A model generated the notes under the pieces. That model did no database searches, was not told the DNA's origin, and was given only the letters and a program-made list of their open reading frames with translations. The position numbers and the translations under genes were made by a program. Positions 49,076-49,289 of a stretch of DNA of 64,000 nucleotides are shown one piece after another (the first letter of the stretch is position 1; each line of letters begins with the position of its first letter). Source of the stretch: a virus. The DNA lies in the IMG/VR virus record IMGVR_UViG_3300046373_000039, positions 20,284 through 84,283 of that record; one strand, written 5' to 3'.

Positions 49076-49289
49076 TTCTTAAAATTCCTGACAAGTCCAC
49101 TTGCAATAATAACTAATCAGTCACAGGAATTTTAAGAAAGAACACTCACTAAACGAAGGAGAAACGCCGTAAGTGTTCGAAAGATCTATTGGAGGAGAGG
49201 AGGACAATAGATCTTTAAGTGCTGTCTTAGGAGAGGAGATGACAGCGTGAATACCACAATCTTTTTAGACTTAATCTTAGTGATTGTGG
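49076..49289 (-). ncRNA. candidate multi-hairpin sRNA with anti-Shine-Dalgarno loops
   Basis: Five consecutive hairpins; three carry CU-rich loops containing UCUCCU. Confidence 0.65.

Follow-up and report, generated by a model that had tools for sequence, protein, structure and literature searches.

The locus and the fold of the element

The window analysed here is a 64,000-nucleotide (nt) stretch, one strand of bases 20284-84283 of the 84,283-bp IMG/VR virus record IMGVR_UViG_3300046373_000039, which has direct terminal repeats and a G+C content of 39.5%. The virion proteins are encoded by a 35-kb block of genes on the minus strand, whose upstream end holds a minus-strand element (49075-49296) that comprises five modules, designated H5 to H1. 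The comparative data presented below make it very probable that the element is a real, conserved and so far uncatalogued structured RNA transcribed from the minus strand. Its modules are listed in the order in which they would appear in that RNA.

49254-49296, minus strand: H5, a conserved single-stranded GUUUCACC lead-in and an 8-bp hairpin (49254-61/49282-89)
49221-49246, minus strand: H4, a 6-bp stem with a 14-nt loop that contains two UCUCC motifs (anti-Shine-Dalgarno (SD)-like loop 1)
49180-49216, minus strand: H3, a 12-bp stem with a 13-nt pure-pyrimidine loop (anti-SD-like loop 2)
49140-49178, minus strand: H2, a 14-pair stem, including three G-U pairs and one 2-nt bulge, with a 9-nt loop (anti-SD-like loop 3)
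49075-49139, minus strand: H1, a long basal stem with two small apical hairpins, which together adopt a Y shape; a putative processing site

A preliminary description of this DNA had reported five back-to-back hairpins between a tRNA gene and the next open reading frame (ORF). All five stems, read from the sequence, are perfect complements, of 15 bp (49076-90/49124-38), 7 bp (49140-46/49172-78), 12 bp (49180-91/49205-16), 6 bp (49221-26/49241-46) and 8 bp (49254-61/49282-89). The three central minus-strand loops also read as they were given in that account, and the 49140-78 hairpin indeed gains three G-U pairs on the minus strand only, its minimum free energy (MFE) fold containing 14 pairs on this strand versus 7+2 on the plus strand. 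The proposal that the 49221-46 stem is better on the plus strand was not borne out, as six pairs form in both MFE folds. The H2 loop is the exact complement of AAGGAGAAA, and the 5' arm of H1 is a U-rich tract that follows H2. Over the 247 nt from 49050 to 49296 the minus-strand fold has a predicted energy of -71.3 kcal/mol (z -6.84), a value that none of 200 shuffled sequences equalled, compared with -66.8 kcal/mol (z -4.48) for the plus strand.

Conservation and covariation in related phages

Relatives were identified through the ORF that follows the element, which encodes 131 amino acids (aa), and then through its alignment, among viral, metagenome and genome contigs. This yielded 13 further distinct contigs, or 14 with the window included. 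Two covariance models, R1 (the window and contig L004) and R2 (ten sequences), located the element exactly once in each of the contigs that reach far enough upstream (12/12). The carriers are the window, L003, L004, L005, L006, L007, L008, L034 (the L009 contig), L010, L011, L025 and L051, all of which are phage-like contigs, while L012 and L029 fall outside the count as they end before the expected position of the element. L051 (JAKFCP010000003.1; 3,575 bp), which contains the ORF at 94% identity together with the element, has been deposited within a metagenome-assembled genome labelled 'Pedobacter sp.'; this assignment was rejected as host evidence because the contig is short and the phage uses many strong SD sites.

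Three adjacent hairpins are present in 12/12 contigs and their stems are highly variable. The Y shape of H1 also occurs in all 12, with arms that differ in sequence, and the H5 hairpin in 11 of the 12; L008 displays a different CU-loop hairpin at this position, and the sequence of the lead-in is conserved. The element adjoins the 131-aa ORF in nine contigs. In the remaining three (L034, L035/L006 and L051) three other genes are interposed between the element and the ORF, and the five-module element is intact. As the modules are retained in front of a different next gene, the element is an independent unit rather than the leader of one particular gene. The intervening genes encode proteins of ~109, 103-107 and 240-242 aa (L034 1708-3096; L035 1730-3114), for which no convincing Pfam match was obtained. 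A tRNA gene abuts the element only in some of the relatives, examples being the window, L004 and L034.

The sequences upstream of the ORF fold consistently on one strand. In nine homologues the 300 nt preceding the ORF gave z-scores of -2.9 to -8.3 in the sense orientation and -1.1 to -4.6 in the antisense orientation, the sense value being the lower in 9/9. Covariance-model alignments (A4-A6) were used to compare individual pairs because a plain MAFFT alignment (A2) misaligned the stems. In A6, which contains 12 sequences, 96.9% of 353 cells pair, compared with 60.6% after the letters of the 3' side were shuffled and 32-44% after the partners were slid; 30 of the 32 pairs change on both sides, and 0/500 shuffles reached any of the five measures applied. 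Both-sided change was observed at 6/6 pairs of H4 (helix 1 of the alignment, 94.3% of cells paired), 11/12 pairs of H3 (helices 2-3, 96-100% paired) and 13/14 pairs of H2 (helices 4-5). The UCUCCU core of the H2 loop is invariant in the MAFFT alignment. A model-free alignment of the window with L004 contains one H3 pair that is U-A in one sequence and C-G in the other, and two one-sided changes in H2 that are retained as G-U.

The cells of A6 comprise 315 Watson-Crick, 27 G-U and 1 A-C combinations and 10 others. Because G-U cells outnumber A-C cells by 27 to 1, the minus (tRNA) strand is the strand that folds as RNA. This result bears on an alternative raised in the preliminary description, in which a plus-strand transcript is the functional molecule and its GGA loops sequester CsrA/RsmA, in the manner of CsrB/RsmZ. 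The three plus-strand loops do carry GGA within hairpin loops, and the plus-strand fold, with the z-score given above, is better than its shuffles. However, when read on the plus strand, the 27 G-U cells would turn into A-C mismatches, compared with one in the opposite direction, the antisense folds are the weaker in all nine homologues, and every gene for 35 kb around the element is on the minus strand. In addition, no strong plus-strand promoter faces the element, the one 9/12 site (49290-49319) pointing away from it. A plus-strand sponge is thus extremely unlikely.

Only tRNAs passed the Rfam 15 thresholds, both in the window and in the loci of 11 relatives. Among cultured phages, megablast matched only tRNA-Gly (11 records), neither blastn of the element (11-base words) nor tblastn of the 131-aa ORF returned a match, and the covariance model matched neither the complete record of KIL4 nor the 4.1-kb locus of PAK_P3. 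KIL4, a Pseudomonas phage (NC_042054), contains a single hairpin with a 15-nt pure-pyrimidine loop that includes CCUCCUCC, located just upstream of its tRNA cluster (L031 7154-7168, minus strand). The tRNA region of L004 displays a sub-threshold match (835-897) to YrlA, a Y RNA-like family, with 39.2 bits against a gathering score of 69 (E 3.5e-5), and this segment may be a tRNA-like module.

The loop motif

The 36 loops, three from each of the 12 contigs, are 8-23 nt in length and 91% pyrimidine, with 205 C, 186 U, 30 A and 7 G among 428 letters. CUCC is present in every loop (36/36), compared with 13.7 after per-loop shuffling, and UCUCC in 32/36, compared with 6.7; neither count was reached in any of 2000 shuffles. 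The longer CCUCUCC is found in 15/36 loops. The predicted probability that CUCC is unpaired averages 0.92, against 0.38 in the rest of the RNA. The excess of both motifs over shuffled loops, in hairpins whose stems are rewritten, points to selection that keeps the order of the loop letters and not only their pyrimidine content.

The composition of these loops raises a protein-binding explanation, in which the G-poor, C-rich RNA is a ligand or decoy for Rho, S1, Hfq or a phage protein such as the basic 131-aa ORF product. In its Rho variant the element would be a rut-like loading site that terminates transcription before the virion genes, or a Rho sponge. The C and G counts of the loops agree with the C-rich, G-poor bias of rut sites, but these sites need no fixed sequence, whereas the loops hold an ordered motif. 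The position of the element between an upstream promoter and the virion genes would suit an attenuator. The product of the adjacent ORF has a basic N-terminus and an unusual degree of conservation (76-94% identity, versus ~50% for other virion-block proteins), and a precedent is provided by the CcsR RNAs of the 'cuckoo' group considered below, which the available text of PMC8034643 describes as co-transcribed with a small RNA-binding protein. Nevertheless, no RNA-binding family was found for the 131-aa ORF, and in 3/12 contigs three genes separate it from the RNA. We consider protein binding an unlikely role for the RNA.

Genomic context

The features that surround the element are as follows.

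49591-49619, minus strand: sigma-70-like promoter candidate, TTGACA-N17-CATTAT with TG before the -10 box (a consensus match only, 10/12 positions)
49452-49590, minus strand: untranslated leader between the promoter and tRNA-Gly, partly conserved in relatives
49377-49451, minus strand: tRNA-Gly(tcc) (ARAGORN; Rfam tRNA, 52.3 bits)
49297-49373, minus strand: tRNA-Arg(tct), which ends directly before the RNA element (ARAGORN; Rfam tRNA, 58.4 bits)
48654-49049, minus strand: 131-aa ORF with a weak AGGAA ribosome site (49058-49062); the next gene in 9/12 contigs
45267-47765, minus strand: collagen-like tail fibre, virion block
41404-42825, minus strand: large terminase (terL), virion block
39780-41372, minus strand: portal, virion block
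36818-37921, minus strand: major capsid protein, virion block

The ARAGORN coordinates place both tRNA genes upstream of the element on the same strand, in agreement with the preliminary description. The promoter proposed there, TTGACA-N17-CATTAT, is present together with the TG dinucleotide at 49619-49591, 367 nt upstream of the RNA core, so that it precedes the tRNAs as well as the RNA, and L011 and L034 have a TTGACA-N17 site with TG at a comparable distance. Its significance is tempered by the finding that promoter-like sites are no commoner in the region than in shuffled sequence (8 found, 9.4 expected). Within the leader, the segment 49484-49567 is conserved upstream in L005 and L007, both of which are without a tRNA at this location, and is covered by contigs in all four RNA libraries compared; the leader fold is unremarkable (z -1.27).

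Judged by its terminase, which is 45% identical to those of the Pseudomonas phages ventosus and UAVern and of PAK_P1-like phages, the nearest cultured terL relatives, the phage is a distant uncultured relative of the PAK_P1-type myoviruses of roughly 90 kb. The 131-aa ORF product is 76-94% identical across the relatives, compared with ~48-54% for other virion-block proteins, while the stems of the neighbouring RNA evolve fast. Its basic N-terminus precedes what is probably a coiled coil. The earlier label of 'putative terS' for this ORF is unsupported, as it matches no terminase small-subunit family, and neither PHROG nor Pfam, the latter searched to E 10, gave a match. It also displays no similarity to the DUF5681 protein of PAK_P3; a protein language model hinted only weakly at a cluster that bears DUF5681 (rank 29, 137 shared features). 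By position, the candidate for the real small terminase is the 118-aa gene immediately before terL (42850-43206, minus strand), itself preceded by a strong TTGACA-N17-TAATAT site. No other virion-block gene retains a GGAGAG/GGAGAA-type ribosome site in each of the four genomes compared.

Downstream of the 131-aa ORF, a 459-nt gap devoid of ORFs (48195-48653, minus strand) extends to tRNA-Met(cat), and folds modestly better than its shuffles (z -2.18); in L003-L005 this tRNA gene is only ~85-150 nt after the ORF. Elsewhere in the window, a plus-strand run of ~15 C occurs at 63873-63888, near the right end of the genome record.

Transcription and the downstream gene

Transcription of the locus was explored through assembled contigs from RNA libraries. 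Contigs of relatives in four libraries from four studies (soil, whole-organism, rhizosphere and wastewater) cover the tRNAs, the conserved leader and H4-H5, with RNA-library shares of 0.07-0.14. One of these contigs, 4,027 nt in length, extends from the ORF across differently stemmed hairpins to H4/H5, the tRNA and the leader. No RNA-library contig of at least 85% likeness covers 49118-49191; the contigs that join across this interval differ from it in sequence, in keeping with an origin from relatives whose stems are different. These contigs are compatible with one long precursor transcript, a weak indication given that DNA carry-over is possible.

A terminator scan identified no terminator-like site within or next to 49075-49296, including the positions after H2 and H1. 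H2 alone is followed by a U-rich tract, which C or A interrupts in most relatives. The scan gives no sign in 49075-49296 of an intrinsic terminator cluster, the hallmark of which is a G+C-rich stem with a direct U run. The idea of a late promoter within the H1 apex was dropped: the apex motif shared by relatives occurs only once in this genome, and the other virion operons are not preceded by any repeated motif. As no terminator is located next to the element, a discrete RNA would have to arise by processing.

The continuity with the downstream gene suggests a second explanation, in which the element acts in cis as the leader of the virion operon. The hairpins would constitute a processing or stability module, with the tRNAs cut off upstream, H1 serving as a site for a double-strand RNase and the hairpins protecting the ends, while ribosomal protein S1 or the 30S subunit (standby) would be drawn by the pyrimidine loops to a weakly SD-led first gene, in place of any action in trans. 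This is consistent with the location of the element, which in every case precedes a gene start by 25-45 nt and heads a block of genes on its own strand, with the lack of a terminator before the next gene, and with the ribosome site of that first gene, which is always weak and not of the GGAGA type. The conservation of the H1 shape in 12/12 contigs and the single RNA-library contig that spans the ORF, element and tRNA can be read in the same way. The identity of the next gene, however, varies (the 131-aa ORF in nine contigs, another gene in three), indicating that the element is not tied to one leader. Furthermore, the strict order of the loop letters exceeds what S1 would need, as binding of this protein to pyrimidines is not known to require such order, and protection or processing leaves three identical loop motifs unexplained. 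A cis-acting leader is thus possible but doubtful; like protein binding, it accounts for the position of the element and not for the ordered word in its loops.

A proposed anti-SD mechanism and its relation to known RNAs

The best mechanism for the RNA, to which we give about an even chance, is base pairing with SD sequences, a proposal based on analogy with the alphaproteobacterial cuckoo/alpha-r14 RNAs such as NfeR1. The minus strand of 49075-49296 specifies a conserved structured non-coding RNA of ~220 nt, consisting of H5, the three pyrimidine-loop hairpins and the Y-shaped H1. Under this mechanism it would be co-transcribed with the two tRNAs where the 35-kb virion block begins, probably from the promoter at 49619-49591. 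The 5' side of the mature RNA may be freed by processing of the tRNA 3' end, which is plausible where a tRNA abuts the element, and the 3' side by a cut within the long H1 duplex or close to it. The (U)CUCC(U) motif in the open loops would then pair with SD sequences of the GGAG(A) type, and so damp the translation of non-virion mRNAs of the phage, of host mRNAs or of both, with the three loops as redundant seeds. An anti-SD small RNA was also the proposal of the preliminary description. The parts of it that stand are the conserved structured RNA, its assignment to the tRNA strand, the anti-SD-like loops in every relative and the cuckoo-like architecture, while its release through tRNA processing is presumed.

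Cuckoo RNAs, as far as the available text of PMC4615179 describes them, consist of 2-4 adjacent hairpins with one anti-SD-like motif per loop and stems that vary by compensatory change, are distributed among the Rhodobacteraceae, Phyllobacteriaceae, Brucellaceae and Rhizobiaceae, and are mostly located beside OG1, a conserved gene for a small protein. Named members are ar14 (Rfam RF02344), NfeR1 (SmelC397) of Sinorhizobium meliloti and RSs0680/CcsR1-4 of Rhodobacter. In NfeR1 three loops redundantly silence targets through occlusion of the ribosome site, independently of Hfq, according to the portion of PMC10746234 available. The phage RNA shares with the group its adjacent hairpins, a common pyrimidine anti-SD-like loop motif and compensatory variation of the stems. 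It differs in its motif (CCUCUCC/UCUCCU, compared with CCUCCUCCC in cuckoo RNAs), in being encoded by a lytic-type phage rather than a bacterial chromosome, in residing in a tRNA/virion-operon transcript without a terminator of its own, and in its additional conserved modules (H5 and the Y-shaped H1).

The likeness raises the possibility that the element is a true alpha-r14/cuckoo member that the phage has captured. Indeed ar14, whose architecture is the same, was the only Rfam family that aligned full length to the window, its alignment covering minus-strand positions 49137-49252 with 24.9 bits (E 0.0068 for a search of 301 nt). This score is, however, far below the gathering score of 58.8, no ar14 match was obtained at E up to 5 in the loci of 11 relatives, and the loop motif is of the CCUCUCC type, with none of the 36 loops containing the full nine-letter motif of the family. 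Moreover, cuckoo RNAs are reported only from the four alphaproteobacterial families named in the available text of PMC4615179, while the nearest cultured relatives of the phage infect Pseudomonas. As score, loop motif and taxonomic range all speak against membership, common descent is very improbable and close to refuted. It is more likely that the phage RNA works like a cuckoo RNA without belonging to the family, convergence being likelier than descent.

Other RNAs provide partial parallels. RNAIII of S. aureus, sX13 of Xanthomonas, RepG of H. pylori and 6C of M. tuberculosis are presented as cuckoo analogues in the available part of PMC4615179. The phage RNA resembles these molecules, which pair with G-rich ribosome-site regions, in its several hairpins and exposed C-rich loop motifs; it has no Rfam match to them at E up to 10, and they, in contrast, are chromosomal stand-alone genes. 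Phage RNAs from tRNA regions offer a parallel in position. The RNAC and RNAD genes lie in the T4 tRNA cluster. These T4 RNAs are abundant, processed and non-coding and accumulate late, as described in the accessible portion of PMC9697503. The same properties of abundance, processing and late accumulation are ascribed to the non-coding RNAs ncRNA1 and ncRNA2 of PAK_P3 in the text available for PMC10914365, which places sRNA2 of this phage between tRNA-Tyr and tRNA-Gln upstream of terL, without its own start site and processed. The likeness of the element to PAK_P3 sRNA1/2 is confined to position, as the latter are without pyrimidine-loop hairpins and their folds are unremarkable (z -0.79 and -1.33).

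Ribosome-site classes and a possible early-to-late switch

A bolder form of the anti-SD proposal, also put forward in the preliminary description, is a translational early-to-late switch. The RNA would be an RNA-based counterpart of T4 RegB that, as it accumulates, masks the GGAGA sites of early/middle genes and of host messages, while virion genes would escape, having evolved to avoid A after GGAG. RegB cuts within GGAG, its strong sites being GG*AGRAYARAA, and late transcripts are resistant (PMC3014915, from the part of the article available). Both would thus be phage devices that silence early messages by SD type, but the analogy is functional only, as RegB is a protein nuclease that cuts, whereas the phage RNA would mask its sites. 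No RegB homologue (PF10715) was detected in this genome at E up to 1, which leaves room for an RNA with a similar job but is no proof of one.

The distribution of ribosome sites was assessed with genes called by a simple script, which itself favours SD-like sites, and classed by strand block. GGAGA is present at -22 to -4 of the start in 39/119 non-virion genes, compared with 2/39 virion-block genes (Fisher 3e-4). The median predicted energy of the duplex with the loops is -9.2 kcal/mol for non-virion genes and -6.6 kcal/mol for virion-block genes (p 1e-4), whereas pairing to the 16S tail does not differ between the classes (medians of -7.1 and -6.1 kcal/mol, respectively; p 0.15); the tail used here is a canonical one, which may differ from that of the host. 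The letter after GGAG is A in 38/61 non-virion but only 2/13 virion-block cases (p 0.004), and the GGAGA and A-rich sites of non-virion genes resemble the class that RegB cuts. The exact complement AAGGAGAAA is located, as had been reported, before three plus-strand genes (3000, 3287 and 9273), and GAGGAGAG occurs at 8513 and 9555. In total AAGGAGAAA has five matches, including 24765 and the element itself, against 1.1 expected.

The avoidance of GGAGA-type sites by virion genes extends to one of the three related genomes compared. In G006 the motif precedes 44/132 non-virion and 2/36 virion genes when these are classed by strand block (p 6e-4), and 12/35 and 2/26, respectively, when they are classed by homology (p 0.016). 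The bias is genuine in this genome, yet it does not always accompany the RNA, and other causes for it are possible.

Several observations weigh against an RNA that acts on SD sequences, some of them directed at the element and others at its targets. The pair counts of A6 derive from a model-fitted alignment, which leans towards structure, and the sequences are related, so that neither loops nor pairs are independent samples. The RNA-library contigs are assemblies and give neither the strand nor the ends of a transcript. Neither H2 nor H1 is followed by a canonical terminator, so that the element may occur solely as part of an mRNA leader. Regarding targets, G004, for which block-based classing gave three genes and homology classing was used instead, displays a trend only (10/38 non-virion versus 3/31 virion genes, p 0.12), and in G005 the classes do not differ (6/30 versus 5/30, p 1), the portal gene being among the GGAGA-led virion genes. 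Long exact complements of the loops are few, and the eight-letter GAGGAGAG, which corresponds to loop 2, is not enriched (three matches, including the element, versus 1.8 expected). Finally, of 38 orthologous groups shared by the four genomes, none ranked within the top quartile of predicted targets in every one of them (0.15 expected), so that no conserved phage target emerged. The case for a class-wide switch comprises the SD bias in two of four genomes, set against the lack of a conserved target and against genomes in which the bias is unclear or absent, and we regard a RegB-like role as possible but rather improbable. The more general anti-SD mechanism keeps the standing given to it above.

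Significance

We know of very few base-pairing regulatory RNAs from virulent phages, and the open papers searched contained no published example of such an RNA with repeated anti-SD loops. The present analysis contributes a comparison of SD classes across four genomes, the finding that the element and the 131-aa ORF are not coupled, the results for RegB and for a conserved target, both negative, and the RNA-library contigs. With comparative support that is unusually clean, the element is well placed to be proposed as a new RNA family. Should class-wide masking prove true, it would mean that phages can re-allocate ribosomes by means of an RNA instead of a nuclease, and would explain the difference in SD type between gene classes in some of these genomes.

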